64,000 nucleotides of DNA from Abditibacterium sp. GTDB taxonomy: Bacteria; Armatimonadota; Abditibacteriia; Abditibacteriales; Abditibacteriaceae. The translations under genes and the position numbers were made by a program. Where the stretch lies: assembly GCA_965246885.1 (NCBI GenBank), contig OZ251992.1, positions 896,001-960,000 of the forward strand, written 5' to 3'. The notes below the pieces were generated by a model. It searched no databases. It saw nothing but the letters and a program-made list of their open reading frames with translations, and was not told where the DNA came from. Positions 8,891 through 20,192 of this stretch are shown piece after piece. The first letter of the stretch is position 1. Each line of letters opens with the position of its first letter.

Positions 8891-9759
8891 CCGTTTCCGT
8901 TGTGGTTCCCGTTTACAATCGCGGCGCGGCGGTGGCTTTGACGCTTGATTCCGTGCTGGCGCAGACGCTCGCGCCGATGGAGGTTATCGCCGTAGACGAC
9001 GGCTCGACCGACGGAAGTGCCGATTTCATCGCGGCGCGTTATGGCGGCGCGGTGCGCGTGATTCGCCAGCTTAATGGCGGCGTGGCGCGCGCGCGCAATC
9101 GCGGTTGGCGCGAAGCGCGGGGCGAATGGATCGCTTTCCTCGACCACGACGACGCTTTCCGTCCGCACAAGTTGGCGACGCTACGGCCCTTTTTGGCGGG
9201 CGAAGCGAGCGTTCTGGTGTCGCGGTGGCGCGAGGTGGAGGGTGGCGAAGTCGTGCGCATCAGCCCCGTCGTGCAGGGCAACCGCGCTTTTGGTTGGCTG
9301 TTTGGCTGGGACAATCCACTCGTGTCGGCGAGTGTGCCGCTCGTGCGCCGCGCCGTGTTGGAGAGCGTCGGCGGCTTCGATGCGCGTTGCGTGCCCGCCG
9401 ACGACTGGGATTTGTGGTTGCGCTTGGCCGCGCGCGGTGAAAAGTTCGCATGGAGCGATGAAGTCCTCACCGACTACATTCTTCACCCCGGCCAGCAACG
9501 CCGCGCCGAGGCCGCGATGTTCCGCGCCGTCCGCCGCACGCTGGGGCGCCACCCCGCCGCGCTCGCCGCGCGCCCGGTTTTGCTGTGGTGGCTCGTGTGG
9601 AGCGGCGCGTTCGTTCCGTCTTCTCCGGCCTATGCGCGCTTCAAAGCTGGCGACCCCACCGCCCTGCGCGATGCCGTGCGCGCCCATCCGCTCGCGTTGC
9701 TTAGCCCGCAGTGGCTAATCGCCCTCGCGCGCCGCGCGATGAAAGAACGGGCTACGTGA
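8887..9759 (+). CDS. Glycosyltransferase family 2
   Basis: VSVVVPVYN, VDDGSTD, FLDHDD, DDWDLWLR; ATGA overlap. Confidence 0.92.
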   Translation: MTVSVVVPVYNRGAAVALTLDSVLAQTLAPMEVIAVDDGSTDGSADFIAARYGGAVRVIRQLNGGVARARNRGWREARGEWIAFLDHDDAFRPHKLATLRPFLAGEASVLVSRWREVEGGEVVRISPVVQGNRAFGWLFGWDNPLVSASVPLVRRAVLESVGGFDARCVPADDWDLWLRLAARGEKFAWSDEVLTDYILHPGQQRRAEAAMFRAVRRTLGRHPAALAARPVLLWWLVWSGAFVPSSPAYARFKAGDPTALRDAVRAHPLALLSPQWLIALARRAMKERAT

Positions 9760-9762
9760 CCG

Positions 9763-9938
9763 GAAGAATTAACTAACTCCCCGGAGAGTTAGCTAATTCT
9801 TCGACTGACAGACCTCTGTCTGCCGAAGAATTATATGCGCCAGTCAAAGAGGAAGGTGATTCTTCCGCCGACACACGTAATTCTTCGGAAGAATTACGTA
9901 GTTCCCTCGAAGAATTAGCCGTCTCTTCGGAAGAATTA
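9763..9938. repeat. Degenerate 21-bp-period array with GAAGAATTA/TAATTCTTC cores and two inverted repeats
   Basis: GAAGAATTA at 9763, 9825, 9888, 9909, 9930; reverse-complement core at 9794, 9878 (variant at 9857). Confidence 0.8.
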
Positions 9939-9951
9939 CCTCGTTTTTTCC

Positions 9952-10416
9952 ATGCCGCAACGACCTCTGCAATTTGGCGCCATCGCTGGCGTTCTGGAAG
10001 GCCAGACTTTTGCCAATCGCCGCGAAGTTTTCGAGGCGCGCTTGCACCGCTCTCTGCTCGCGGGCATCTCCGGCACCGCGCGCGACGGGAGTGACGCGGT
10101 TATCGTGTCCGGCGGCTACGAAGATGACGACGACCGAGGCGACACGCTCATTTATACCGGCGAGGGCGGGCGCAACCCCCAAACCGGCGAACAAATCGCG
10201 GGGCAAATCCTCGTTAAAGGCAACCTCGCCTTGGAAAGGAGCCGCATCAACGGCCTCCCCGTCCGCGTCATTCGCGGCGCCGCCGCCAAGTCCCGCTTCG
10301 CCCCCCAAGAAGGCTACCGCTACGACGGCCTCTACCGCGTGAGGCGCTCATGGCCCGAAAAGGGCAAGTCGGGCCACATCGTGTGGCGCTTTGAACTGCG
10401 TAAGGAGGACGGGTAG
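9952..10416 (+). CDS. Stand-alone SRA/YDG domain protein (methyl-cytosine reader fold)
   Basis: AGISG, IVSGGYEDDDD.GD.LIYTGEGG, GNLAL, PVRVIRG, YRYDGLY. Confidence 0.92.
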   Translation: MPQRPLQFGAIAGVLEGQTFANRREVFEARLHRSLLAGISGTARDGSDAVIVSGGYEDDDDRGDTLIYTGEGGRNPQTGEQIAGQILVKGNLALERSRINGLPVRVIRGAAAKSRFAPQEGYRYDGLYRVRRSWPEKGKSGHIVWRFELRKEDG

Positions 10417-10462
10417 AACACAGGCGGCACTCTTATCTTCCGGCTGTGATACTTCATTCGCC

Positions 10463-10657
10463 ATGAAAGAAGCGACATACCCAACGTCAACAACAGACGA
10501 ACAATATCGAGCCGAAGCCGAGCATTGGATGGCCCAAATCCATCTGCTCAACGAGCAGTCGAACCGCGAGTGGACGCGCATCGAACAACTGCGCGCCGAA
10601 TCGCAAGCCAACCTCGCGCGCATTGAAGCCATCGTCGCGCGTTTGGAGAATCGCTGA
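10463..10657 (+). CDS. Small predicted coiled-coil hypothetical protein
   Basis: Helical heptad pattern; stop overlaps the next start (TGATG). Confidence 0.6.
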   Translation: MKEATYPTSTTDEQYRAEAEHWMAQIHLLNEQSNREWTRIEQLRAESQANLARIEAIVARLENR

Positions 10658-10920
10658 TGTGGAAGCAAATCACAGACATCGGCAAGCAACTCTTCAACTT
10701 CGGCCAACGCATGAACAAAGTGGAGGCAGAGCAAACCCAACTGCGCGAAGACGTGAACCGCATCGAGCGTTCGCTTGAACGCCTATTGCTCGCCGAAGAC
10801 AACAACCGCGAAGTCCGCGACCGGGAACGCCAAATCTGGGAGCGCGACCAGAAGATTCTGATGCTCGAACTGCAACGCGAACTCGACAAGTTCGAGCGCC
10901 GCCTCCCGCCCGCCAGCTAA
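10657..10920 (+). CDS. Small predicted coiled-coil hypothetical protein
   Basis: Amphipathic N-terminus, heptad pattern, ends FERRLPPAS. Confidence 0.7.
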   Translation: MWKQITDIGKQLFNFGQRMNKVEAEQTQLREDVNRIERSLERLLLAEDNNREVRDRERQIWERDQKILMLELQRELDKFERRLPPAS

Positions 10921-11115
10921 GACAACAGGCCGCACCCAAAATAGTCGTGCCCCCGCGCCATCGGCTCCGGGAGTGGCCAACGGGCGCGGGTGTTTCGTCG
11001 CCCGATGCCCTCGAAAACGGCGCCGACACTGCGCCGCCTTACCCTCGCCGGGTTACGGTCAAGGGTGGCGGCGTTCTCTGGGCCGTTGCGACGCGGCTTT
11101 AAACTGTGCGCTATT

Positions 11116-11448
11116 ATGAAGCGTTTTCTCACCCGCCCGTTTCTCCCCGGCAAGCGCCAGTTCTGGCTGTCAGTTCCTCTCTTCGTCATTGGCGCAACTC
11201 CTTACTTCAGCTTGCCCCGGATGCCCCAAGACGAGTTCTTCGCCGTCGTTTGCTTCCTCTTCGCGTTCGTCTTCGCCTTGAATGCTGTCCTCGACTTGCG
11301 CCGCATCCCCGCCGTCGCGCACGGCTTCGTCGTGCTGTGGTTCGCGTTGCTTCTTGTGCTGCTTCCTTTTACGCTGTGGAACACATTCAACAACGCACTT
11401 TGGTATCGCTCGCACCCAATGCCAAACGGCGGGATTGGCGCGCGGTAA
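11116..11448 (+). CDS. Hypothetical membrane protein
   Basis: About three hydrophobic segments. Confidence 0.6.
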   Translation: MKRFLTRPFLPGKRQFWLSVPLFVIGATPYFSLPRMPQDEFFAVVCFLFAFVFALNAVLDLRRIPAVAHGFVVLWFALLLVLLPFTLWNTFNNALWYRSHPMPNGGIGAR

Positions 11449-11469
11449 AGTCACAACGTTCAACTTCTC

Positions 11470-11766
11470 ATGTCGTCTCGCCCTTCCTCCGAACGTCTGT
11501 CAAAATTCGCGCCTTTGTTCTTTACCGTTGTTGGTTTGTTTTGGGGAGGTTGGATTGGTTTTGCCGTCGCTGTCAATTACGCGACGGTAGAAATCGCCAA
11601 GTATCAAGCGCAACACAACGGGGATGATGGCGGCGCGAGTGAAGGCGCGTTCGCGCTCCTTGTCGGTTTGCCTGTGGGCGCAGTGCTGGGCGCGTTGTCG
11701 GGGTGGCTTTTAGGACTCGTTGTCAGGCATTTCGCTGACAAAAAGCGCCCGCTACTCAACGAGTAG
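11470..11766 (+). CDS. Hypothetical membrane protein
   Basis: Two hydrophobic Gly-rich segments. Confidence 0.6.
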   Translation: MSSRPSSERLSKFAPLFFTVVGLFWGGWIGFAVAVNYATVEIAKYQAQHNGDDGGASEGAFALLVGLPVGAVLGALSGWLLGLVVRHFADKKRPLLNE

Positions 11767-11775
11767 CGGGCGCTT
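11740..11775 (-). terminator. Intrinsic terminator downstream of fusA
   Basis: 15-bp inverted repeat AAGCGCCCGCTACTC-aac-GAGTAGCGGGCGCTT ending in a U-tract on the minus strand. Confidence 0.8.
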
Positions 11776-11790
11776 CCATTCAATCAAACA

Positions 11791-13911
11791 CTACCGGCGA
11801 CCAGTCGCCGTCGCCAGAATTTCCTCTTGGATATTGCTCGGCACTGGTTCGTAGTGGCTTGGCTCCATTGTGTAGGTGGCGCGGCCTTGGGTGAGCGAGC
11901 GCATGGTCGTCGCGTAGCCGAAGAGTTCGGAGAGCGGGACTTGCGCGCGCACGATTTGGGTGCCGCCTTTGTCGGGGCGCATTTCGTTGATGCGTCCTCT
12001 GCGGCTCGACAGGTCGCCGATGATGTCGCCCATGTTGGCGTCAGGGGTGACGACTTCCATTGACATGATCGGTTCGAGAATCACCGGTTTGGCTTTGCGG
12101 GCCGCTTCGCGCAGTCCTTCGGCTCCGGCGATTTCAAAGGTCATCGCGTTCGAGTCCACTTCGTGATACGATCCGTGAACCAGTTCCACGCGCACGTTCA
12201 CGAGCGGATAGCCCGCCAACACGCCGCGTTCGAGAGCGGACTTGGCGCCCTTTTCGACGCTCGGCCAGAACTCGCGGGGGACGACGCCGCCCACGACTTT
12301 CGACTCGAACTCGAAGTTGTTCTGCTTGCCGTTCTCGTCCGCGACCGTCGGCATCACGTTGATGACGATGTGCGCGAACTGGCCCGAACCGCCCGACTGC
12401 TTGACGTGCTTGTAGGTCAACTCCTTGACCGTGCCTTGGATGGTCTCGCGGTAGGCGACTTGCGGCTTGCCGATGTTGGCCTCGACCGCGTATTCGCGCT
12501 TCATGCGATCCACCATGATTTCCAAGTGCAACTCGCCCATGCCGCCGATGATGGTCTGGCCCGTTTCTTTGTCGTTGCGGACTTTGAAGGTCGGGTCTTC
12601 CTGCGTGAGCTTGATGAGAGCGTCGGTCATCTTGTCCGCGTCGTTGCGAGTTTTCGCTTCGATGGACTGGAAGATAACCGGCTCGGCGAAGTTGATGTTT
12701 TCGAGAACAATCGGGTTGTTCTCGTCGCACATCGTGTCACCCGTCACGGTGTCGGACAAGCCGATGGCGGCGCAGATGTCGCCCGCTTCGGCGTATTCCA
12801 CGTCTTCCTGCTTGTTGGCGTGCATCCGCAAAATGCGCGACACGCGCTCCTTTTTGTTCTTGCCCGAATTCAGGATGTAGCTGCCCTTGTTGACGCGGCC
12901 CGAATAGACGCGAAAATAGGTCAGGCGCCCGAACTTGTTGGACATGATTTTGAACGCGAGTGCCGAGAACGGGTCGTCCGGGTTCGGTTCGCGCGAGGTG
13001 CTTTCGCCGGTATCGGGGTTGGTGCCGATGATGGCGGGCGTGTCGAGCGGCGACGGCAAAAACTCGATAACCGCGTCGAGCATCGGCTGCACGCCCTTGT
13101 TCTTGTAGGACGAGCCGCAAATGACGGCGATAATGTCGTTTTGAAGCGTCGCTTTGCGGATGCCTTTGCGGACTTCCTCTTCGGTGAGTTCTTCGCCAGC
13201 GAAGAATTTCTCCATCAAGGTGTCGTCGGTTTCGGCGACGAATTCGAGCAGTTCGCGGCGATACTCCTGCGCCTTTTCCATGAGTTCGGCGGGAATCTCT
13301 TCCTCGTCGAACGTCGAGCCTAAGTCTTTGGCTTCGTTGTAGCGGATCGCCTTCATCTTGATGAGGTCAACCACGCCCGCGAAGTCGTCTTCGGCGCCGA
13401 TGGGGATTTGAAGCGGCACGGGCCGCGCGCCCAATCGCTCGCGCAGTTGGCCGACAACCTCGTAGAAGTTGGCGCCGGAGCGATCCATTTTGTTAATGTA
13501 GGCCACGCGCGGAACGCCGTAGCGGTTGGCTTGGCGCCACACGGTTTCCGATTGCGGTTGCACGCCGCCAACGGCGCAGAACACGGCGACGAGTCCATCC
13601 AAAACGCGCAAGGAGCGTTCGACTTCAACGGTGAAGTCCACGTGACCGGGCGTGTCGATGATGTTGATGGTGTGGCGCGGGTATTGGTGCGTCGAGCCGT
13701 CCCAAGTGCAGGTCGTCGCGGCACTGGTGATGGTGATGCCGCGTTCTTGCTCTTGTTCCATCCAGTCCATCGTCGCGCTGCCATTGTGGACTTCGCCGAT
13801 GCGGTGGTTGACGCCCGTGTAGAACAAGATGCGTTCGGTGGTGGTTGTCTTACCGGCATCGATGTGAGCCGCAATGCCGATGTTGCGTGTGAGCGATAGA
13901 TCTTTCGCCAT
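11791..13911 (-). CDS. fusA: Elongation factor G
   Basis: [23 protein letters not shown]; about 706 aa; AAGGAGAGG RBS upstream. Confidence 0.98.
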
Positions 13912-14020
13912 GATGTTTAAAGCCTCTCCTTTGAGGTGTGTGGGTTTCCCGTGCGCGTCCAGCAACGCTAATTTTCTCGCGTCGTCATTCCGACTCTCGC
14001 GCTGTCATTCGATTCTTCCG

Positions 14021-14143
14021 CGCTGTCATTCCGAGGGGAGCCTTGGCGACCAGAGGAATCTTATTTGAGCCGCTCGTCGGTTACAAACGAGCAGTTGCAA
14101 GTAGATTCCTCTGGTCGCCAAGGCTCCCCTCGGAATGACAGCG
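14021..14143. repeat. REP/MITE-like palindromic element
   Basis: Perfect 41-bp inverted repeat (14021-14061 / 14103-14143) with TGTCATTCCGAG...GGAATCT ends. Confidence 0.9.
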
Positions 14144-14184
14144 TCTGCTTGCTTGGTTCAAGGGCGAACGCCCCCAAATCCGGG

Positions 14185-14321
14185 CAAACAAAAACCGCAG
14201 CCAGATTTTCCCTTCGGGCGAGCCAAAGAAGAAAACGCGAAACGGTAGAAGCAGAATGTCTGCTTCTACGCGAGTTCGTCGTCGTCTTCGTCGTCGTCCA
14301 TGAGAAAATCCGCCTGCGGTT
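14185..14321 (-). promoter_or_regulatory. Putative attenuator in the fusA leader
   Basis: 20-bp outer stem (14302-14321 / 14193-14212) followed by a U-rich tract; perfect 11-bp inner hairpin 14245-14269. Confidence 0.65.
14266..14301 (-). CDS. Putative leader peptide MDDDEDDDELA
   Basis: ATG GAC GAC GAC GAA GAC GAC GAC GAA CTC GCG TAG; SD-like AGGCGG upstream; nested in paired stems. Confidence 0.6.
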   Translation of the reverse strand: MDDDEDDDELA

Positions 14322-14387
14322 GGATACTTTTAATTGCGCGTGCGGGGAAACCGGGCTACAAACGCTTCGCGCAAGAGTGGGGTTGCG

Positions 14388-15050
14388 CTATTTTCGAGCG
14401 GACAGGCGCTTTAACTCTTCTCGTGTCCAAGGGTTCTTATTAGCGACCATTACACGTTCGGGACGCCGCAAGGTTTCTACTGATCCATAGAACAAAAACA
14501 AGCCAACAAGGGAGAAAAACAAGGAAGCATCTCCCCATCCCCAAACCAGAACAGATTGTTCTGGTTGTTGAGGATTGACAAGGCACTGCGCCTTTGAGCC
14601 GTCAGGATAGTTCTTGAGCCAGTCCCCCTGCTTAAACGTCATAGAAAAAGACGTTAATCGTTCACCGGCATACCGGCGACCATTGACGATGTAGGAGTAG
14701 GATATCCGGTTTTCCGGTGTATAGGTGGGGCTTGTCCATGAGACAACACAAGGAACTTGCTGCCAGTCCTTCGACCGAAGAGTAAATGCGAGGGGTTCAA
14801 ACACGAGGCTTCGTCCAAAGATAAGGATAATGAACAGGAACAACAAGCCACAAAGACGAGCTTTGGTGTTGTGCCTCATCCGTTCTGAGAACGCTCGACG
14901 CTCATCGTTCGAGAGAGCAGCTTCTCGCTGTTGGATTTCGGCTACGAGTTCGTGATAACGCTCTGGCGCACGACGTTCACTCATGCGACTTCGCATAACC
15001 ACAAGTTCGGCCAAAGAACACTCAGCATAATCGGGCGCCTCGTCAATCAT
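14388..15050 (-). CDS. DUF3592-like membrane protein
   Basis: TM-...W..V...YSY.VNGRRY.G...VNPQQPEQSVL-TM pattern. Confidence 0.7.
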   Translation of the reverse strand: MIDEAPDYAECSLAELVVMRSRMSERRAPERYHELVAEIQQREAALSNDERRAFSERMRHNTKARLCGLLFLFIILIFGRSLVFEPLAFTLRSKDWQQVPCVVSWTSPTYTPENRISYSYIVNGRRYAGERLTSFSMTFKQGDWLKNYPDGSKAQCLVNPQQPEQSVLVWGWGDASLFFSLVGLFLFYGSVETLRRPERVMVANKNPWTREELKRLSARK

Positions 15051-15132
15051 ATCCTCATTGTAACGCAAACGCCCGCGCGTGCCGAGGGGCAACTCAGCGC
15101 GCTTTTCACGCTCACGGCGCCGCACACTCCCC

Positions 15133-15321
15133 GCGTTCAACGTCCAACGCGGCGCGTTCAACATTCAATGCGGCGCGTTGAACATCCAACGGCCCGCGCT
15201 GTGCGTCTCCTACGGCTCGTTGAACGTCAAGCGGGCCGCGTTGAACTGCAAATACGGCCCATTTGCAGTTCAACGGGCCGCATTTGCAGAACAGCTTGCA
15301 CCATTTGCAGAAGCTGGCAAA
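15133..15321. repeat. Degenerate 21-bp tandem array, 9 units
   Basis: Units such as GCGTTCAACGTCCAACGCGGC, GCGTTGAACATCCAACGGCCC drifting to CCATTTGCAG... Confidence 0.85.
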
Positions 15322-15451
15322 CTCCCGCGCGAGGTATTTCAATCAATGGCCGACAGCATCCCACAAAATCCTGAACCGGGAGTCAAGCGCGTGGACGACT
15401 TCTTAGAGACGGTCTGAAAAGGCTCTGACCGATGGCGTAATTCTTCGTTTC

Positions 15452-15619
15452 CTCTCCGTATTTTGGGCGAAGAAATACCTCCTTTCCCCGGCCAAATACG
15501 GATTTCCCCCGGAGGAATCCGTACTTGGCGGCGTCAAATCCGTATTTGGCCAGAAGAAATACGGATTTAACTCGGTCAAATCCGTATTTGACGCGGCTAA
15601 ATATGGATTCCTTTGGGTG
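15452..15619. repeat. Degenerate 21-bp tandem array, 8 units
   Basis: AAATACGGATTT (15494, 15557) and its reverse complement AAATCCGTATTT (15536, 15578) in the same 21-nt phase. Confidence 0.88.
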
Positions 15620-15659
15620 CCACGCCCTTATTTGCCGAACTGACGGGCGGGCGGGCCAC

Positions 15660-15693
15660 AAGCGCGCCGCTTTCGAGAGAAGTCGGCGCGCTT
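15660..15693. terminator. Hairpin downstream of the relE-like gene
   Basis: AAGCGCGCCG / CGGCGCGCTT inverted repeat. Confidence 0.55.
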
Positions 15694-15696
15694 TGT

Positions 15697-15966
15697 TCAG
15701 TCGTAAACATCCTTGCGGTCGCCGACTTCCACGACGACAACGACTAATATGCCGTCTTGAACGTCGTAGATGATGCGGTAGTCGCCGACGCGAAGGCGAT
15801 AGAATTGCGTTTTGCCCCGGAGTTTCTTGCCGCCCGATGGACGCGGTTCGAGTTCGAGGGTGTAGATTTTGTCGAAGAGCTTGTTTTGCACTTCTTCCGA
15901 CAAGCGGTTAATCTGGCGCCACGCGGGTGACTCAATTAGCACGCGGTAGGAGTGTGGTTCGTTCAT
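15697..15966 (-). CDS. RelE/ParE-family toxin
   Basis: PRPSGGKKLRG, YRLRVGDYRIIY, VGDRKDVY. Confidence 0.93.
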   Translation of the reverse strand: MNEPHSYRVLIESPAWRQINRLSEEVQNKLFDKIYTLELEPRPSGGKKLRGKTQFYRLRVGDYRIIYDVQDGILVVVVVEVGDRKDVYD

Positions 15967-16196
15967 CGCCCCAAAGCCTTGCGCCAATCGTCCAAAGTTT
16001 TGCGTTGCGACGGGTCGCTATTCGCCAAGATGCGCTCGGCTTCGGCGGCGTCCACTTCGTCCTCCAACTCTTCGAGCAACTCCTCGGTCGGCTCTGGGTA
16101 AAGCGCGACGACTTCCTCAAACGGGATACCACGCTCTTTGGCGACATCTGCAAAAACGTTCTGGGCGTAGCGGGAGAGGGTGGCGGTAGGTGTCAT
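15963..16196 (-). CDS. Putative antitoxin
   Basis: Small acidic protein overlapping the toxin start by 4 nt; EELED..D...A pattern. Confidence 0.75.
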   Translation of the reverse strand: MTPTATLSRYAQNVFADVAKERGIPFEEVVALYPEPTEELLEELEDEVDAAEAERILANSDPSQRKTLDDWRKALGR

Positions 16197-16205
16197 CTGT
16201 TGAGT

Positions 16206-16472
16206 TTACTGAGCGAGAAGATGATGGGGTTTCGCGCTCCGGTTGGCGATGTAGGCGCGCAAATCATCGAGCGTGTAGCGTTCGTTCGGGTCATCTTCCA
16301 ACCGCGCGCGGCGTGCGGCGGCGACATCCAATTCGTCTTCCAATTCTTCCAGCGCCTCTTCGGAGAAATCGAGGCAACTCGCCACGACTTCTTCGAGCGA
16401 CACGCCGCGTTCTTTGGCGACGGCGCGGAGCAGACTTTCCACTTCGGGCTTGAGTTCGAGGGGCAAGGTCAT
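16206..16472 (-). CDS. Putative antitoxin paralogue
   Basis: Shares VAKERG..EEVVA....EE.LEELEDE.D with 15963-16196; ribbon-helix-helix-like N-terminus. Confidence 0.72.
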   Translation of the reverse strand: MTLPLELKPEVESLLRAVAKERGVSLEEVVASCLDFSEEALEELEDELDVAAARRARLEDDPNERYTLDDLRAYIANRSAKPHHLLAQ

Positions 16473-16533
16473 GGCCCCAATTTGCCACGAACTGGCGGCG
16501 ACTCAACGCGCGGCGTCCCTTAAACTCCCACCC

Positions 16534-16650
16534 ATGAAAACGATTCGTCTTCGCTTCGATGGGCGCACTTTTGTTCCGCAGGAGGAGGTGCATCTGCCCG
16601 CCGGGTTTGAAACGACGGTGGAAGTAGAGCCGATAAACTTTGGGCTATGA
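16534..16650 (+). CDS. Short DUF104/AF2212-like antitoxin-family protein (38 aa)
   Basis: MKTIRLRFDGRTFVPQEEVHLPAG..TVEV pattern. Confidence 0.55.
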   Translation: MKTIRLRFDGRTFVPQEEVHLPAGFETTVEVEPINFGL

Positions 16651-16907
16651 AAACGACTTCGGCGATTTGGGATGGGGCGGGGCTTCGGTTCGAGAACATC
16701 ACGCCGCCTGCAGGGGTGCGCGTGAGCGTCAGTTGGGCCGATGAAGACGAGGGCGAAGTGGAAGGGCCGGGGGTGGCGTTGTTGCGGTTAGTCGAAGAGT
16801 TGAACGAGCAGTTCCCGCCCGACCCGGACACACCGTCCGACTTGGCGGCGCAGCACGATCACTATTTGCATGGCCAACCCAAACGAGCGGACAATGATTT
16901 TCGTTGA
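16647..16907 (+). CDS. Putative VapB-type antitoxin
   Basis: Acidic; C-terminal PSDLAAQHDHYLHG; overlaps the PIN gene. Confidence 0.72.
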   Translation: MKTTSAIWDGAGLRFENITPPAGVRVSVSWADEDEGEVEGPGVALLRLVEELNEQFPPDPDTPSDLAAQHDHYLHGQPKRADNDFR

Positions 16908-17298
16908 TACGGGCTACTTCCTCGCTTTGCTGCAACCACGCGATGGGTTGAACGCACGCGTAGGGCGTTGGGCCACAGCCGTTGCAGAGCCGCTCGTGAC
17001 CCACGAGTTTGTGTTGGTTGAAGTGGCCGACGCGCTTTCGAGTCCTCGTGACCGCCGCCGCATCGCGCCTTTTTTCGCGGGGCTGTACGCTCAGTCCTCG
17101 TTGAACATTATTCCCGCTTCGACGGCTCTGCTCATTGCCGGTCTCAATCTCCATTCGCAGCGTCCCGACAAGGAGTGGTCGCTCACCGATTGCATTTCGT
17201 TCGCCCTGATGCAAAAGCGCGGCCTCACGCGGGCGTTGGCGTTCGACCATCATTTCGAGCAGGCGGAGTTCGAGGCGTTGCTGCGCCACAAGCCGTGA
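16894..17298 (+). CDS. vapC: PIN-domain (VapC-family) toxin
   Basis: IFVDTG, VLVE, WSLTDCISF, AFDHHFEQA. Confidence 0.92.
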   Translation: MIFVDTGYFLALLQPRDGLNARVGRWATAVAEPLVTHEFVLVEVADALSSPRDRRRIAPFFAGLYAQSSLNIIPASTALLIAGLNLHSQRPDKEWSLTDCISFALMQKRGLTRALAFDHHFEQAEFEALLRHKP

Positions 17299-17343
17299 AC
17301 TTCCCCTTTCTCCCGTCGGTGCGCATAATTTGGTCGCCGCCCG

Positions 17344-17448
17344 GGGTCGGTGAAAGAAAGCGCGGGGTCATTGGACGACCCGTTTATGCCGGTCAACGTT
17401 TGATGTGTACCGGCGAATGAGTCGCCCATGCCGGTGAACGGTTGCGCG
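17344..17448. repeat. Degenerate 21-bp tandem array, 5 units
   Basis: GGGTCGGTGAAAGAAAGCGCG (17344), ATGCCGGTCAACGTTTGATGT (17386), ATGCCGGTGAACGGTTGCGCG (17428). Confidence 0.6.
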
Positions 17449-17456
17449 GGGCCGTT

Positions 17457-18911
17457 TTATTCCTCGCAGAACTGCGTGACGCGGTTGCGGCCCCCTTCTT
17501 TAGCGGCGTAGAGGGCTTGGTCGGCTTGGTCGAGGAGGCGCAGGCCGGTTTGGGAGTTGGCGGTGTGGGTGGCGATGCCGATGGAAATGGTGATGGGGCG
17601 CAACCGCCAAGGCGCGGTTTCGATGGTGCGGCGCATGCGCTCGGCGAGTATGAAAGCACCCTCGGCGCCGGTGTTGGGCAGCAAGATGGCGAACTCTTCG
17701 CCGCCCAAGCGCGCCACAAAGTCGCTGGTGCGCGCTTTTTCGGATAGGAGGCGCGCAACGGTTTGCAGCACTTCGTCGCCGCAACCGTGCCCGAAGGAGT
17801 CGTTGAAGAGCTTGAACTTGTCCACGTCGAGCATCAGCACCGACAAGGGCACGCCATAGCGGTGGGCGCGGTCGAACTCGTCCTCTAAGCGCGGATCGAA
17901 GGCGCGGCGGTTGTGCAACCCGGTGAGCGCGTCGCTGCGGCTTTCGGCCTCGACGCGAATCAGCGCGTTTTCTAATTCCAGTTGGTAGCGCTCCAACTGC
18001 TGCTCGTAGTGCTTGGTTTGAGTGACATCGAGCGCCACGCCCGCCAAAGAGCGCGCGTTTCCACCGCCGCGCGGCAGGGGGAACTTGAAGACTTGCCAGA
18101 ACCGCTCGCCGTCGGGCGTGGGGACGCGCTCCAAGATTTCGACGATGCTCTCGCCCTCGACGATTTGGGTGTCGTGCGCGCGCAGATCGGCGGCGACTTC
18201 AACGGGCCACAGGTCGAAGTCGTCGTGGCCGATGACCTTTTCTTTGGTGAGGTTGAAGCGCTCCAAGAACGGCTTGTTGACATACGAGAAGCGCCAGTTG
18301 GCGTCTTTAACGAATGCCACCAAGGGCGAGGCATCCATGAACGCTTCAAAGCGGGTTTGGCTGTCCCGCAGTCGGGCCTCGTTTTGAACATGGAGGGCGA
18401 GGGCGTTGCTCAAACGGACGAGGTTGCGGCGCAGTTCGAGTTGGGCCACAGCCTGACGCGCAAGCGCGCGGAGCGCTTTTTGTTGGGCGGGCGACAGTTC
18501 GCGCGGTTGGTGGTCGAGGACGCACAGCGTTCCCAGCGCGTCGCCTTCGGGCGTGACGAGCGGGGCGCCCGCGTAGAATTGGATGTTTTCTTCGCCCGTC
18601 ACGAGCGCGTTGTCGCGGAAGCGCGGGTCGTTGCGGGCATCGGGAACAATAAGCAGTTCGTCGGCTTGGAGCAGGGCGTGCGCGCAAAAGGAGAGATCGC
18701 GCGGCGTTTCGGACACGGTGATGCCCAAACGCGACTTGAACCACTGCCGGTCGTTGTCAACGAGGGACACGAGCGCCATCGGCGTCCCGCAAATCTGCGA
18801 CGCCAGCACCACGATGTCGTCAAACCCCTCCTCTGGAGGGGTGTCCAGAATGTTATAGGATTCCAGCGCCAACAAGCGTCGGGCTTCATCGGGCGGCAGG
18901 GGAGCTTTCAT
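17457..18911 (-). CDS. GAF-PAS-GGDEF diguanylate cyclase
   Basis: GAF (SFCAHA, FYAGAPL), PAS, DALTGLHNRR, GGEEF active site. Confidence 0.95.
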   Translation of the reverse strand: MKAPLPPDEARRLLALESYNILDTPPEEGFDDIVVLASQICGTPMALVSLVDNDRQWFKSRLGITVSETPRDLSFCAHALLQADELLIVPDARNDPRFRDNALVTGEENIQFYAGAPLVTPEGDALGTLCVLDHQPRELSPAQQKALRALARQAVAQLELRRNLVRLSNALALHVQNEARLRDSQTRFEAFMDASPLVAFVKDANWRFSYVNKPFLERFNLTKEKVIGHDDFDLWPVEVAADLRAHDTQIVEGESIVEILERVPTPDGERFWQVFKFPLPRGGGNARSLAGVALDVTQTKHYEQQLERYQLELENALIRVEAESRSDALTGLHNRRAFDPRLEDEFDRAHRYGVPLSVLMLDVDKFKLFNDSFGHGCGDEVLQTVARLLSEKARTSDFVARLGGEEFAILLPNTGAEGAFILAERMRRTIETAPWRLRPITISIGIATHTANSQTGLRLLDQADQALYAAKEGGRNRVTQFCEE

Positions 18912-18989
18912 GGGACGGTAAAAGATAAAGACTACACCGACAAGTTTAAGAACCAAAACTGCCACTCGCAGCCAACGCCCAGCCGAAGT

Positions 18990-19601
18990 TCACTCTTCTC
19001 TAATGGAAGCTGGACGCAGGGGGAGCACGTCGGGTACATCCAATTCGTCGTAGATGTCGGCGAGGGAGAGTTCGATGCCCACGCTGTCCAACTCTATCAC
19101 CTCGCCGCGCCCGTCGTAAGACCGGTGCACCCAGTTTGCCCCCTGCCGCGAGAAGTGCTCGACCCACACGCGGTCTTGCTCTATAAGGATGTACTCCTCG
19201 AAGGTGGGAATGGTTTTGTAGAGCGCGAACTTGCCCGTGCGGTCGTAGTTTTGGGTGGAATCCGACAGCACCTCGAAGATGACCTTGGGAGTCAGCAGGG
19301 CGGAGTCGCCCTTGCCAACGAACCGCGACGGCGGGCAGAAGATAACCGCATCGGGATAAACCTCCTTCCCGTTCGACTCGGCTTTGACGCGCATCTCCGA
19401 ACTGCGCGCCTTGCACGGCTTGCCCCGCAAAGCCTCCTTCGCAGCAGCCGCGACGTTGGTGCAGATGGTGGCGTGATTGAAAGTCCCACCCGCCATAGCG
19501 AACACTTCGCCATCGAGCCACTCGTGTTTGACCGTCGAAATCTCCTCGCCCTCGCGGTACTCTTCCTCGGTGATGTAGTCGAACTGGCGCTGCGCGTTCA
19601 T
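18990..19601 (-). CDS. Uma2-family (DUF820) endonuclease-like protein
   Basis: KHEW.DGEVFAMAGG..NH, YPD, EVLSDST..YDR..KF..Y. Confidence 0.92.
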   Translation of the reverse strand: MNAQRQFDYITEEEYREGEEISTVKHEWLDGEVFAMAGGTFNHATICTNVAAAAKEALRGKPCKARSSEMRVKAESNGKEVYPDAVIFCPPSRFVGKGDSALLTPKVIFEVLSDSTQNYDRTGKFALYKTIPTFEEYILIEQDRVWVEHFSRQGANWVHRSYDGRGEVIELDSVGIELSLADIYDELDVPDVLPLRPASIREE

Positions 19602-19658
19602 GGGAGGAAGTTTGACGCTTTGGGCGCACCCCTCACAACCGGGAATTGCGCTTTGGGT

Positions 19659-20192
19659 TCATTGGCGTGTCCAAATGTTTGTGGTCGTTCGAGGCACTCC
19701 GCCTAAGTTATCAGTCGAAGTGGCCACTATTCTATTTGACCCCCATGCCATCCAGCGAAGGCGAATGACAATGCCCTTGTGGGACTTGCTCTTGTCATAC
19801 GCATCAATCGAGTACTTCTCGGCATCGTCAATCGTGTTACCATTGGGAACAAAAGGAATGTCGGCTCCGTTTGTTCGCACGTATCGTTTGAAGTTGAACA
19901 GCCTAACTGAGTTGGCGCTCACGGAGTAGCTGCCCTTGAACACAGATGGAGCGCCGGGGCCAGAGCCATCTTCCCCACCTATCTTTGATGTTGGGGAGAA
20001 GGTCGTAACGTCTTCGTATTGCCCATTGGCTTTGAATGTGGTTATTGTTGTGCGGTCTTTATCGCTGTGCACTTGCCATGTGCCCACAAGACGAGAAGTT
20101 ACGGGGCTACGAAGCAGGGCCTGAGCGACAATCACGACAAGCGGCATCAAAGGGCAGGTCAGCAAAATCAACTTTCTACGGTTAAAGTGCAT
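19659..20192 (-). CDS. Hypothetical exported protein
   Basis: N-terminal hydrophobic segment, LVGTW motif. Confidence 0.6.
   Translation of the reverse strand: MHFNRRKLILLTCPLMPLVVIVAQALLRSPVTSRLVGTWQVHSDKDRTTITTFKANGQYEDVTTFSPTSKIGGEDGSGPGAPSVFKGSYSVSANSVRLFNFKRYVRTNGADIPFVPNGNTIDDAEKYSIDAYDKSKSHKGIVIRLRWMAWGSNRIVATSTDNLGGVPRTTTNIWTRQ

Follow-up and report, generated by a model that had tools for sequence, protein, structure and literature searches.

fusA outside its operon

How the supply of elongation factor G (EF-G) is matched to ribosome demand when fusA lies outside the str operon is poorly understood. That question is raised by the window analyzed here, a 64,000-nucleotide stretch of the genome of an Abditibacterium sp., in which fusA stands alone and an initial annotation, made from the letters only, placed upstream of it a poly-acidic leader peptide within an attenuator-like terminator. 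Proteomes avoid poly-acidic N termini, which are hazardous; to our knowledge, mgtL is the only well-studied case in which such an N terminus serves regulation. The structural part of the initial reading stood, in conservation, covariation, linkage to fusA and the presence of a promoter-like motif upstream. On its regulatory part we hold, with fair but not strong confidence, that the leader is a ribosome-dependent (leader-peptide) transcription attenuator of the stand-alone fusA, and cells of this family probably set EF-G output by the way the ribosome handles a hard-to-translate acidic peptide.

The gene downstream of the leader (11791..13911, minus strand) encodes a 706-residue EF-G that matches TIGR00484 with 1063 bits against a cutoff of 659, and it is the sole full-length EF-G match, and the sole canonical fusA, in the genome. 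Its Shine-Dalgarno (SD) sequence, AAGGAG, lies at about 13931-13926.

Anatomy of the leader

On the minus strand, the leader ORF occupies 14266..14301 (ATG at 14301-14299, TAG at 14268-14266), and its 11 codons read MDDDEDDDELA: Met, the eight consecutive Asp/Glu codons DDDEDDDE that the initial annotation had described here, then Leu and Ala. An SD-like AGGCGG is found 8 nt 5' of the AUG, inside the segment (14302..14321) that is both the ribosome-binding region of the ORF and, in folds, the 5' strand of the terminator base stem, P1. The 3' strand of P1, at about 14193..14213, ends in GCGG and pairs with 14321-14302; directly 3' of it, the letters show the U-tract TTTTTGTTTG (14185..14194). 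At the top of the structure, a perfect 11-bp hairpin with a 3-nt loop (14245..14269) holds the stop codon of the ORF. Both the pairing of the SD-like region ahead of the U-tract and the burial of the stop codon in this hairpin had been claimed beforehand, and both were reproduced on folding. Folding also went further than the earlier claim: the acidic codons themselves pair with a pyrimidine-rich 3' arm (14214..14244; seen in folds and as consensus pairs), so that 14320-14195 becomes a single continuous imperfect hairpin of 125 nt with the leader ORF as its 5' arm.

The minimum free energy is -79.6 kcal/mol over 176 nt (z = -6.6; 0 of 200 shuffles equally stable), and the 133-nt hairpin of the window taken alone gives z = -8.6. 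Because fold energy is alike on both strands, and G-U strand asymmetry gave no signal, only the U-tract, the ORF and fusA served to assign the strand. A simple terminator scan did not pick up the leader hairpin, owing to its length, and an Rfam cmscan of 9000-20000 at E values up to 1 returned no match in 14185-14345. A covariance model of the leader element finds one matching site in the 3.55-Mb genome. The unit formed by the ORF and the hairpin before fusA is not due to chance. A genome-wide regular-expression scan for short ORFs opening with an acidic run returned four places, the fusA leader among them; two of the other three are C-terminal tails of long frames, and the third is a separate ORF of 20-23 codons with no U-tract after it.

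Upstream of the hairpin lies a promoter-like bipartite motif (14357..14386, minus strand) composed of GCAACC (14386-14381), an 18-nt spacer and TTTGTA (14362-14357), from which the transcription start is predicted at about 14372-14350, 5' of the hairpin. The pattern GCAACC-N17/18-T(A/T)T(A/G)TA is kept before fusA across genera, including genera that have no leader ORF, and the second genus described below has a near-consensus TTGACA-N17-CATAAT or GATACT about 35 nt 5' of the hairpin. Genome-wide, the motif is not enriched (13 matches versus 14 for a reversed control), and it may be either specific to fusA or no promoter at all.

Conservation and covariation among relatives

When the fusA upstream regions of relatives were aligned, as had been suggested along with the initial annotation, the acidic ORF proved conserved and the outer stem was found to covary. 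The leader ORF, hairpin and U-tract precede fusA in 16 of 27 Abditibacteriaceae genomes belonging to two genera, a count that stands for few independent lineages because the 16 genomes are kin and five of them have nearly identical leaders. All 13 genomes of the genus of the window (g1) carry the unit, as do three of the six genomes of the second genus (g6). Fifteen of these leaders are complete and one is cut by a contig end (G008), its contig beginning within the ORF with the 3' arm, GCGG and U-tract present. Thirty fusA loci were examined, 14 of them with an acidic short ORF upstream, and a covariance model (R1) run over the 27 family genomes adds G024. A "MEEES" match at -619 in locus L030 had passed the composition filter only and was dropped. 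Reverse-strand echoes of true R1 matches were ignored. Also discarded, as false positives, were the R1 matches in G021, G023 and G042 and two additional ones in G006, which consist of long perfect hairpins and lack the ORF.

A pattern scan of the whole collection gave 108 stretches, of which the 12 that precede fusA all come from Abditibacteriaceae. Within the family genomes, the unit is present only where fusA has become detached from the rpsG-fusA operon. A set of 80 metagenome fusA loci was retrieved with the EF-G N terminus; since these loci are only 71-79% identical and include no close relative, their counts (an acidic short ORF upstream in 0 of 80 and an rpsG-like end upstream in 66 of 80) serve as a broad negative sample only.

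All 14 hairpins folded were far more stable than their dinucleotide shuffles (z from -6.5 to -13.6; 0 of 100 equally stable in each case). Across 14 sequences, pairing at the 12 aligned pairs of the base stem reaches 95.2%, compared with 37-54% in slid controls; double-sided changes occur at five pairs (16 cells), and 0 of 500 shuffles reached the covariation score. Between the 3' arm and the acidic arm, seven sequences share 35 consensus pairs, eight of them with compensatory changes, and in relatives a conserved CATCTTC block faces GAAGA(C/T)GA. Covariation was counted only for the base stem and this seven-sequence subset because MAFFT misaligns the interior of the hairpin; a further alignment (A3), in which strands were mixed, was left out. 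GCGG shows no variation across 14 of 14 leaders, and GCGG with at least five T is found in 15 of 15 complete leaders as well as in the truncated one. Beyond the AUG, the acidic run, the base stem and the U-tract, no block is invariant.

The GC-rich stem and U-tract, placed between the putative promoter and fusA, are predicted to act as an intrinsic terminator, and the leader ORF with its ribosome-binding site makes up the entire 5' strand of it. A mutually exclusive antiterminator of the trp/his type was sought in single-sequence and consensus folds, all of which give one hairpin. The element therefore fits the ribosome-occlusion subtype of attenuator and not the classical antiterminator subtype. 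An alternative pairing of the 5'-terminal GGUUUCCCC with part of the 3' strand of the base stem was considered and rejected, as it is not conserved in relatives.

Proposed mechanism and the nature of the signal

In the mechanism that we propose, transcription would start 25-70 nt 5' of a hairpin of 125-150 nt, the GC-rich base stem and U-tract of which would constitute the intrinsic terminator. The start region of the ORF would be accessible only while the polymerase has yet to produce the 3' arm, 112-140 nt past the AUG; because the 3' arm closes this region, ribosomes would load only co-transcriptionally. In keeping with this, predictions for 13 leaders whose 3' arm is still to be transcribed leave the segment from -15 to +6 mostly unpaired, with a mean P(unpaired) of 0.51-0.79. 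Should the 5' strand be free of ribosomes by the time RNA polymerase arrives at the U-tract, zipping of the hairpin would stop transcription before fusA. If, instead, a ribosome is held up at the early acidic codons, it would cover the 5' strand of the base stem together with the mid-stem, the terminator would not form and fusA would be transcribed. The initial annotation had likewise supposed that a lingering ribosome blocks the outer stem, and the geometry read from the 14 leaders fits such blocking because the 5' strand of the base stem starts 17-20 nt 5' of the AUG; relative to the apex, the end of the stop codon falls 6.5-11 nt upstream or about 5 nt downstream. With no alternative antiterminator hairpin found, the model requires the ribosome itself to do the masking, sterically and kinetically. 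Once past about codon 6, it would free the roughly 20-nt base-stem strand, and thermodynamically the stem could still close. Transcription from an internal promoter between the terminator and fusA, which may exist, would count against the attenuator model.

The acidic run would make the dwell time of the ribosome on these codons dependent on the translation apparatus itself. With ample EF-G and RRF, such ribosomes would be cleared or moved on quickly, leading to termination and less EF-G; with EF-G scarce or inhibited, they would stay, leading to read-through and more EF-G, and thereby to a negative feedback loop. In E. coli, three to five N-terminal Asp/Glu residues are reported to cause pausing or abortive drop-off, which EttA, YbiT, bL31 and Mg2+ counter (PMC11162784; PMC11282234), and D/E runs interrupted by Pro are described as a ribosome-destabilizing composition (preprint 10.1101/2021.02.02.429294). 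Slow peptide-bond formation together with high EF-G is reported to promote the drop-off of short peptidyl-tRNAs (PMC8934632); ribosomes carrying di- to tetrapeptides are described as being removed by RRF and RF3, and inactivation of RRF as raising occupancy at codons 2-4 (PMC10192219). By analogy, the latter two reports make a link to EF-G and RRF plausible, with the qualification that the data on intrinsic ribosome destabilization, EttA and EF-G-dependent drop-off come from E. coli systems, of another phylum than Armatimonadota. The signal could be EF-G/RRF activity, ribosome stability or energy. We put forward only tentatively, as a possibility that we would sooner doubt than adopt, that the leader is a dedicated gauge of EF-G/RRF activity made from a destabilizing peptide, that it couples fusA inversely to EF-G activity and that it arose when fusA left the str operon.

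The same anatomy could instead report ribosome stability or energy, not EF-G, in a feed-forward and not a feedback arrangement. Low Mg2+, ABCF-ATP or subunit bridging would then cause abortive drop-off, the 5' strand would be freed, the terminator would form and fusA would be off, and stable ribosomes would complete the run and remain on the hairpin, so that EF-G is made. We regard this as unlikely, if deserving of serious attention: N-terminal D/E(/P) runs are the defining destabilization motif in E. coli, where MgtL is reported to sense Mg2+ by this means; the DDPDDE peptide of G024 matches the DE/P composition; and, in a leader that lacks an alternative hairpin, the loss of a ribosome can only favor termination. 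Were drop-off the main effect of the acidic run, unstable ribosomes would turn fusA off instead of signaling a shortage of EF-G. Against this reading, nothing ties Mg2+ or energy specifically to fusA, before which alone the element sits in the genome, and a search for an EttA equivalog (TIGR03719) returned a best score of 357 bits against a cutoff of 806.75. We therefore rejected EttA as the sensed factor; two ABCF-like frames exist in the genome, and ABCFs other than EttA are still candidates. Sequence alone does not separate the stability reading from the feedback reading.

Coding constraint on the acidic run

Eleven distinct complete leader peptides were found, each of which retains the AUG, the frame and an N-terminal acidic run; indels between them are whole codons, flanking residues vary freely and the stop codon near the hairpin apex is kept in 15 of 15 complete leaders. 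The ORFs have 11-16 codons with 5-8 consecutive D/E residues from residue 2 or 4, the exception being the variant of G024, in which CCC stands in place of a Glu codon (GAA) to give DDPDDE and the hairpin is kept (-71.7 kcal/mol). Asp and Glu interchange freely between species. Among the first six codons of the run, the three variable sites are all third positions, and none of the 12 first or second positions varies. Even synonymous sites of the acidic codons hardly vary, so RNA pairing constrains these codons as well; the comparison supports selection on the acidic run at the peptide level, though not in a way that is cleanly separable from RNA pairing. Judged from this comparison, the start codon and ribosome-binding region appear to be conserved as parts of an ORF, with an SD-like element that is weak and variable from species to species, and the first few residues hold a DE/P-rich motif of the mgtL type.

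This pattern bears on the possibility that the leader is an element of RNA only, such as a constitutive leaky terminator, a stabilizer or a protein-binding site, with the ORF as a by-product of pairing between a GA-rich and a CU-rich arm. Such an origin would suit the near-invariance of fully base-paired codons at synonymous positions and the weak SD, and terminator-like fusA leaders without acidic ORFs are reported from other lineages (PMC2965389). It is nevertheless quite improbable in light of the retained AUG, frame and stop, the whole-codon indels and a stop that tracks the apex. Moreover, G-to-A changes at first or second positions would leave pairing with U intact, but the core run contains none; the GAA-to-CCC replacement retains DE/P composition; and the AUG and the run are among the invariant blocks along with the base stem and U-tract.

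Stalling at cognate codons when tRNA charging is low is the mode of the his, thr and pheA leaders, and a classical amino-acid attenuator would work here if poor charging of Asp-tRNA or Glu-tRNA stalled ribosomes at the Asp/Glu codons and so prevented termination. A leader ORF that overlaps with a terminator and contains a run of 5-8 codons specifying two amino acids suits this scheme, and the format is reported for amino-acid and aminoacyl-tRNA synthetase genes, as with a Cys-codon uORF before cysS (PMC8632094). The target, however, is EF-G, neither an Asp/Glu pathway gene nor an aminoacyl-tRNA synthetase gene, and making extra EF-G under starvation would, we infer, have no obvious logic. Because Asp and Glu interchange freely and one run contains Pro, a property of the nascent chain fits better than a specific tRNA, and we give the amino-acid scheme a slightly slimmer chance even than the RNA-only element.

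Comparison with known leaders

The closest described counterpart of the proposed attenuator is mgtL, the leader of mgtA in Salmonella and E. coli, where a short ORF with an N-terminal acidic/Pro motif (EPDP in MgtL) is reported to destabilize or pause the ribosome, and where the fate of the ribosome on the leader decides downstream transcription, as we propose by analogy for fusA (PMC11282234; preprint 10.1101/2021.02.02.429294). In mgtL, termination is described as Rho-dependent, the leader forms alternative stem-loops and ribosome drop-off turns the target gene on. Neither such stem-loops nor a Mg2+ transporter gene was found at the fusA leader: its ORF is the 5' strand of a predicted terminator of the intrinsic type, drop-off should switch the gene off and the gene downstream is fusA. 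The acidic run is also much longer and purer (5-8 D/E), and the leader has neither sequence similarity to mgtL nor an Rfam match.

E. coli pyrBI and rph-pyrE likewise do without an antiterminator hairpin, and a ribosome on or next to the terminator hairpin prevents its folding. The proposed occlusion is of this kind. The signal in pyrBI and rph-pyrE is UTP-dependent pausing of the polymerase, and their ORFs extend into the hairpin or right through it; in the fusA leader, by contrast, the ORF stops at the apex, and dwell on the acidic run is the variable proposed. Leader peptides of cat and erm genes and the whiB7 uORF also share features with the fusA leader, namely a short ORF in the 5' arm of a hairpin and, as proposed here, a response to the state of translation. 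In those systems, a ribosome stalled on the short ORF remodels the leader RNA so as to free a ribosome-binding site or an antiterminator, and antibiotics or alanine supply are sensed through specific arrest peptides or codons; we know of none with a poly-acidic peptide or with fusA as its target.

Premature terminators upstream of fusA or its operon have been predicted before. Naville and Gautheret (2010; PMC2965389) reported a str-operon "rpsL-leader" and rpsG-fusA attenuators, proposed to be S7-responsive RNA structures. These lie upstream of rpsL or between rpsG and fusA and, as far as that account of them goes, come with no described leader peptide; here, fusA is outside the operon and its leader has a conserved ORF. 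The initial annotation knew of no leader of this kind for fusA, and that statement can be extended to Rfam, open-access papers and bioRxiv, in which we found neither a poly-acidic fusA leader nor leader-peptide control of fusA.

The acidic leader, with its 5-8 D/E residues in two genera, would be a second regulatory use of such an N terminus, mechanistically opposite to mgtL in that drop-off at an intrinsic terminator turns the gene off. If the leader does gauge EF-G, it would be the first natural nascent-chain destabilization motif in the homeostatic control of a core translation factor, as well as the first leader-peptide autoregulation described for EF-G. A compact natural element of roughly 170 nt, it can be transplanted into E. 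coli or a reconstituted system, and it makes testable what limits the residence of ribosomes on acidic chains (EF-G, RRF, ABCFs or Mg2+) and whether cells read ribosome residence as a measure of translation capacity. It would also offer a clean example of a new regulator that emerges upon the departure of a gene from its operon.

Flanking sequences

In most species, a co-oriented ORF lies upstream of the leader and ends 66-170 nt 5' of the hairpin. The upstream ORFs of 11 species show no mutual similarity at E = 1e-5, and the leader element therefore belongs to fusA and not to the upstream gene, as also follows from the single model match in the genome and from the pattern scan, in which the 12 stretches that precede fusA belong to this family. 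It is thus highly improbable that the unit, compact as its promoter-like motif, ORF and terminator may be, serves as a small gene with a promoter and terminator of its own, coding for an acidic peptide that is itself functional, or just as the terminator of the nearby, mostly co-oriented upstream gene (a reading that we rejected on the unrelatedness of these ORFs), given that it always precedes fusA, occurs only where fusA is detached from rpsG and, with an ORF buried in its own terminator and only the acidic run conserved, would be unlike known peptide genes.

Three RNA runs and one possible RNA run (each at 5-8% of sampled words) were aligned over 11700-15200. Contigs from these runs matched only conserved parts of fusA, at a likeness of 88-95% that marks them as coming from other organisms, and in one run also the palindromic repeat described below; cover was lacking over 14157-14390, and the runs are uninformative on leader expression.

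Between the leader terminator and fusA, the gap is 278 nt in the window versus 56-147 nt in relatives. It contains a palindromic repeat with perfect arms of roughly 41 nt (14021..14142, strand not assigned), on which the only Rfam matches near the leader fell, all of them spurious and of miRNA type (14024-14140). The repeat is missing in relatives and is an insertion, outside the conserved unit; arm-like copies of it are found at about 10 other places in the genome.

A structured leader upstream of fusA in the window. The EF-G gene fusA lies at 13911–11791 on the minus strand (TIGR00484, 1,063 bits against a cutoff of 659). The 3.55-Mb genome contains no second full-length match to EF-G; the remaining matches are partial, with 26 to 39% identity, and consistent with other translational GTPases. 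No rpsG precedes fusA. Upstream, also on the minus strand, the sequence reads as an 11-codon ORF, MDDDEDDDELA (ATG at 14301–14299, TAG at 14268–14266), whose stop codon is enclosed by a perfect 11-bp hairpin (14269–14245). A base stem (14321–14302 paired with 14213–14193) is followed directly by the U-tract TTTTTGTTTG (14194–14185). The coordinates that the initial annotation had assigned to the upstream ORF (uORF), the apical hairpin, the outer stem, and the U-tract were all correct. Its description of separate stems holds in part: the pairings are present, but RNA folding joins them in a single continuous imperfect hairpin (14320–14195), with the acidic codons base-paired to a 3′ arm rich in pyrimidines. 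The folding check that it had proposed bore the structure out, with −79.6 kcal/mol over 176 nt (z = −6.6; 0 of 200 shuffles equally stable) and z = −8.6 for the hairpin by itself. Because fold energies are similar on both strands, the strand was assigned from the U-tract, the ORF, and fusA.

The gene preceding the leader (15164–14388, minus strand) encodes a 258-amino-acid protein without an NCBIfam match. Between the U-tract and the fusA start lie 278 nt, compared to 56 to 147 nt in relatives, the excess being supplied by a palindromic element with perfect arms of ∼41 nt (14142–14021, with short repeats down to ∼13981). The element occurs before fusA in this genome alone and is absent from the leaders of other species; arm-like copies are found at ∼10 further sites across the genome. 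Three copies of a ∼13-nt motif (GAATGACAGCGCG-like) come after the element, which gives spurious matches to miRNA families in Rfam. Three genes upstream, an ordinary PAS-GGDEF diguanylate cyclase gene is encoded at 17457–18965 on the minus strand (TIGR00254, E = 1.8e-49). Just one other stand-alone short ORF with an N-terminal acidic run was seen in the genome, MLDEEEDNLPPNKRRNSRQR (G000:C1:1441346, minus strand); its start may lie 3 codons further upstream, there is no U-tract hairpin after it, and a 200-amino-acid frame begins ∼340 nt downstream.

Distribution of the leader. Loci of fusA were drawn from 40 relatives, and the 900 nt upstream were scanned for short acidic ORFs. Among the 30 loci examined, 14 carried one: the window, 11 genomes of the same genus, and 2 belonging to a second genus, g6. 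Seven leaders were used to build a covariance model, which recovered all 14 and matched the genome containing the window at one site only. Run over 27 genomes of the family Abditibacteriaceae, the model added a g6 genome, G024, in which the contig with the leader and the contig with fusA overlap end to end. In the last same-genus genome (G008), the contig begins inside the uORF, with the rest of the unit present. In all, 16 of the 27 family genomes have the unit (13/13 in the window's genus, 3/6 in g6, and 0/8 in the other four genera), and the base stem covaries, as the initial annotation had suggested checking in relatives. These 16 genomes are kin, and five of the leaders are nearly identical. 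In the leaderless genomes G013, G016, G017, G019, G021, and G041, fusA comes after rpsG, the classical str operon order. The context in leaderless G015 is different; this upstream comparison did not include G014 and G023, and G018 and G042 (63% and 77% complete) gave no fusA match.

Beyond the family, no short acidic ORF preceded fusA at 13 loci belonging to other families in the phylum or at 80 from a metagenomic sample of more distant bacteria. A pattern scan of one genome for each of 185,579 species returned 108 stretches. Twelve have fusA next and come from this same family; judging from open-frame counts, the remaining 96 are mostly acidic C termini of long frames that a terminator happens to follow.

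Conservation of the peptide and the RNA. The complete peptides are MDDDEDDDELA (three genomes), MDDDEDDDELV (two genomes), MNADDDEDDDESA (two genomes), MKSDDDEDDEGLKRL, MKSDDDEDDDGIKRL, MDSDDEDDDEGADGLI, MDSDDDDDDNGADGLI, MDSDDDDDNGADGLI, MKNDDEDDEGEGLNG, MQSDDDEDDGAA, and, from G024 (locus L158, 884–1045), MKNDDPDDEGEGLNG, in which a proline interrupts the acidic run. The start codon and the run of Asp/Glu codons are the sole constant features, and residues on either side vary. Differences in uORF length are whole codons, the frame is closed in every leader, and the three variable sites in the first six run codons are all third positions, each variant still encoding Asp or Glu. In G024, all three bases of one Glu codon are changed, to CCC, giving DDPDDE with the hairpin kept; in a preprint (10.1101/2021.02.02.429294), Asp/Glu runs with occasional Pro, exactly this composition, are reported to destabilize translating ribosomes. 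Invariant nucleotide blocks comprise part of the base stem, the ATG, the run, CATCTTC opposite GAAGA(C/T)GA, and GCGGTTTTT. As synonymous positions are nearly invariant, RNA pairing also constrains the acidic codons.

All 14 hairpins (133 to 159 nt) are far more stable than shuffled sequences (z between −6.5 and −13.6; none of 100 shuffles per hairpin was equally stable). The base stem was aligned as 12 pairs in 14 sequences; pairing holds in 95.2% of cells, falling to 37 to 54% when the partner is slid by 1 to 3 columns. Changes on both sides occur in 5 pairs and 16 cells (e.g., CCGCAGGCGG/…CUGCGG versus CCGCGAAACGAG/CUCGUUUCGCGG), and the covariation score was attained by 0 of 500 shuffles. 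The number of double-change pairs, attained by 78 of 500 shuffles, is by itself a weak measure, and the sequences are related. A consensus of 7 sequences, the only subset in which interior stems were aligned, has 35 pairs, 8 of them with compensatory changes.

Proposed mechanism. The 5′ strand of the base stem starts 17 to 20 nt before the AUG and thus coincides with the ribosome-binding region. The uORF stop codon ends 6.5 to 11 nt before the apex or ∼5 nt past it, and 112 to 140 nt separate the AUG from the end of the U-tract. Positions −15 to +6 stay largely unpaired until the 3′ arm has been transcribed (mean probability, 0.51 to 0.79) and are paired once the hairpin is complete; ribosomes should therefore load during transcription only. 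With its P site on the first few codons, a ribosome would cover the strand due to pair beside the U-tract; further along, it would cover the mid-stem and apex, where the long hairpin would nucleate. Since no alternative antiterminator hairpin was found in the folds, we read the unit as a predicted ribosome-occlusion attenuator, in which a ribosome present would give read-through and its absence termination. The acidic run would sit exactly where ribosome dwell time counts.

According to published E. coli studies, three to five N-terminal Asp/Glu residues cause pausing or abortive release, which EttA, YbiT, bL31, and Mg2+ counter (PMC11162784; PMC11282234); drop-off of short peptidyl-tRNA is driven by high EF-G when peptide bond formation is slow (PMC8934632); and ribosomes with di- to tetrapeptides are cleared by RRF and RF3, RRF inactivation raising occupancy at codons 2 to 4 (PMC10192219). 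By analogy, residence on the acidic leader should fall as EF-G and RRF activity rises, which, combined with the occlusion anatomy, leads us to infer negative feedback of EF-G on fusA.

Alternative readings and linkage to fusA. A feed-forward switch also fits this anatomy: fusA would be turned off by ribosome instability when Mg2+ or energy is low. A search of the window's genome with TIGR03719 gave no EttA equivalog (best match, 357 bits against a cutoff of 806.75), and the genome has two ABCF-like open frames of ∼600 amino acids (C1:284996–286156 and C1:1093067–1094422). An internal promoter may also lie between the terminator and fusA. A sensor of Asp/Glu-tRNA is unlikely, given that Asp, Glu, and even Pro interchange in the run and that the target is EF-G. 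An element acting through RNA only does not explain the conserved start and frame, the whole-codon indels, or the stop that tracks the apex, and the first- and second-position transitions that would keep pairing are lacking. Nor does a gene for an acidic peptide, or a terminator of the neighboring gene, fit the linkage data: ORFs that precede the unit were compared across 11 species and have no similarity to one another, so the hairpin is not simply the conserved terminator of a conserved neighbor.

Judged from this genomic context, the unit belongs to fusA and lies within its leader. Between the neighboring gene and the hairpin is a bipartite motif, GCAACC-N17/18-T(A/T)T(A/G)TA (14357–14386, minus strand), that is found before fusA across genera (loci L017 to L020 and L023), including those retaining rpsG-fusA; in the three g6 leaders, its place is taken by TTGACA-N17-CATAAT or GATACT, ∼35 nt ahead of the hairpin. 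The motif has no genome-wide enrichment, so we label it a putative promoter. The arrangement suggests that, within this family's str operon, fusA is served by a promoter of its own. A perfect TTGACA stands 17 nt before the CAACCT part of the motif in three species of the window's genus, so that either half could be the −10 element.

Relation to known systems. Rfam has no match for the unit, and full-text searches of open-access papers and bioRxiv found neither leader-peptide control of fusA nor a poly-acidic leader other than mgtL-type motifs. As read here, the unit would work like known ribosome-occlusion attenuators and shares the motif type of its acidic run with mgtL. In contrast to the fusA unit, mgtL has a Rho-dependent terminator, alternative stems, and a Mg2+ transporter as its target.

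Other leaders before fusA. Leader structures before fusA seem common and diverse in the family. In G015 (locus L016), which is of another genus, the leader of an rpsG-free fusA contains, ∼90 to 210 nt upstream of the gene, a different 14-codon ORF, MKLKISDEYSQRGR, and after it a 10-bp hairpin and TATTTTTGTG; this single example may be an unrelated attenuator. In another genus, long palindromes rich in GA/CU occur in the rpsG-fusA spacers of G019 and G021 (L018 and L019; 200 to 350 nt), as does a weak hairpin resembling a terminator ahead of fusA.
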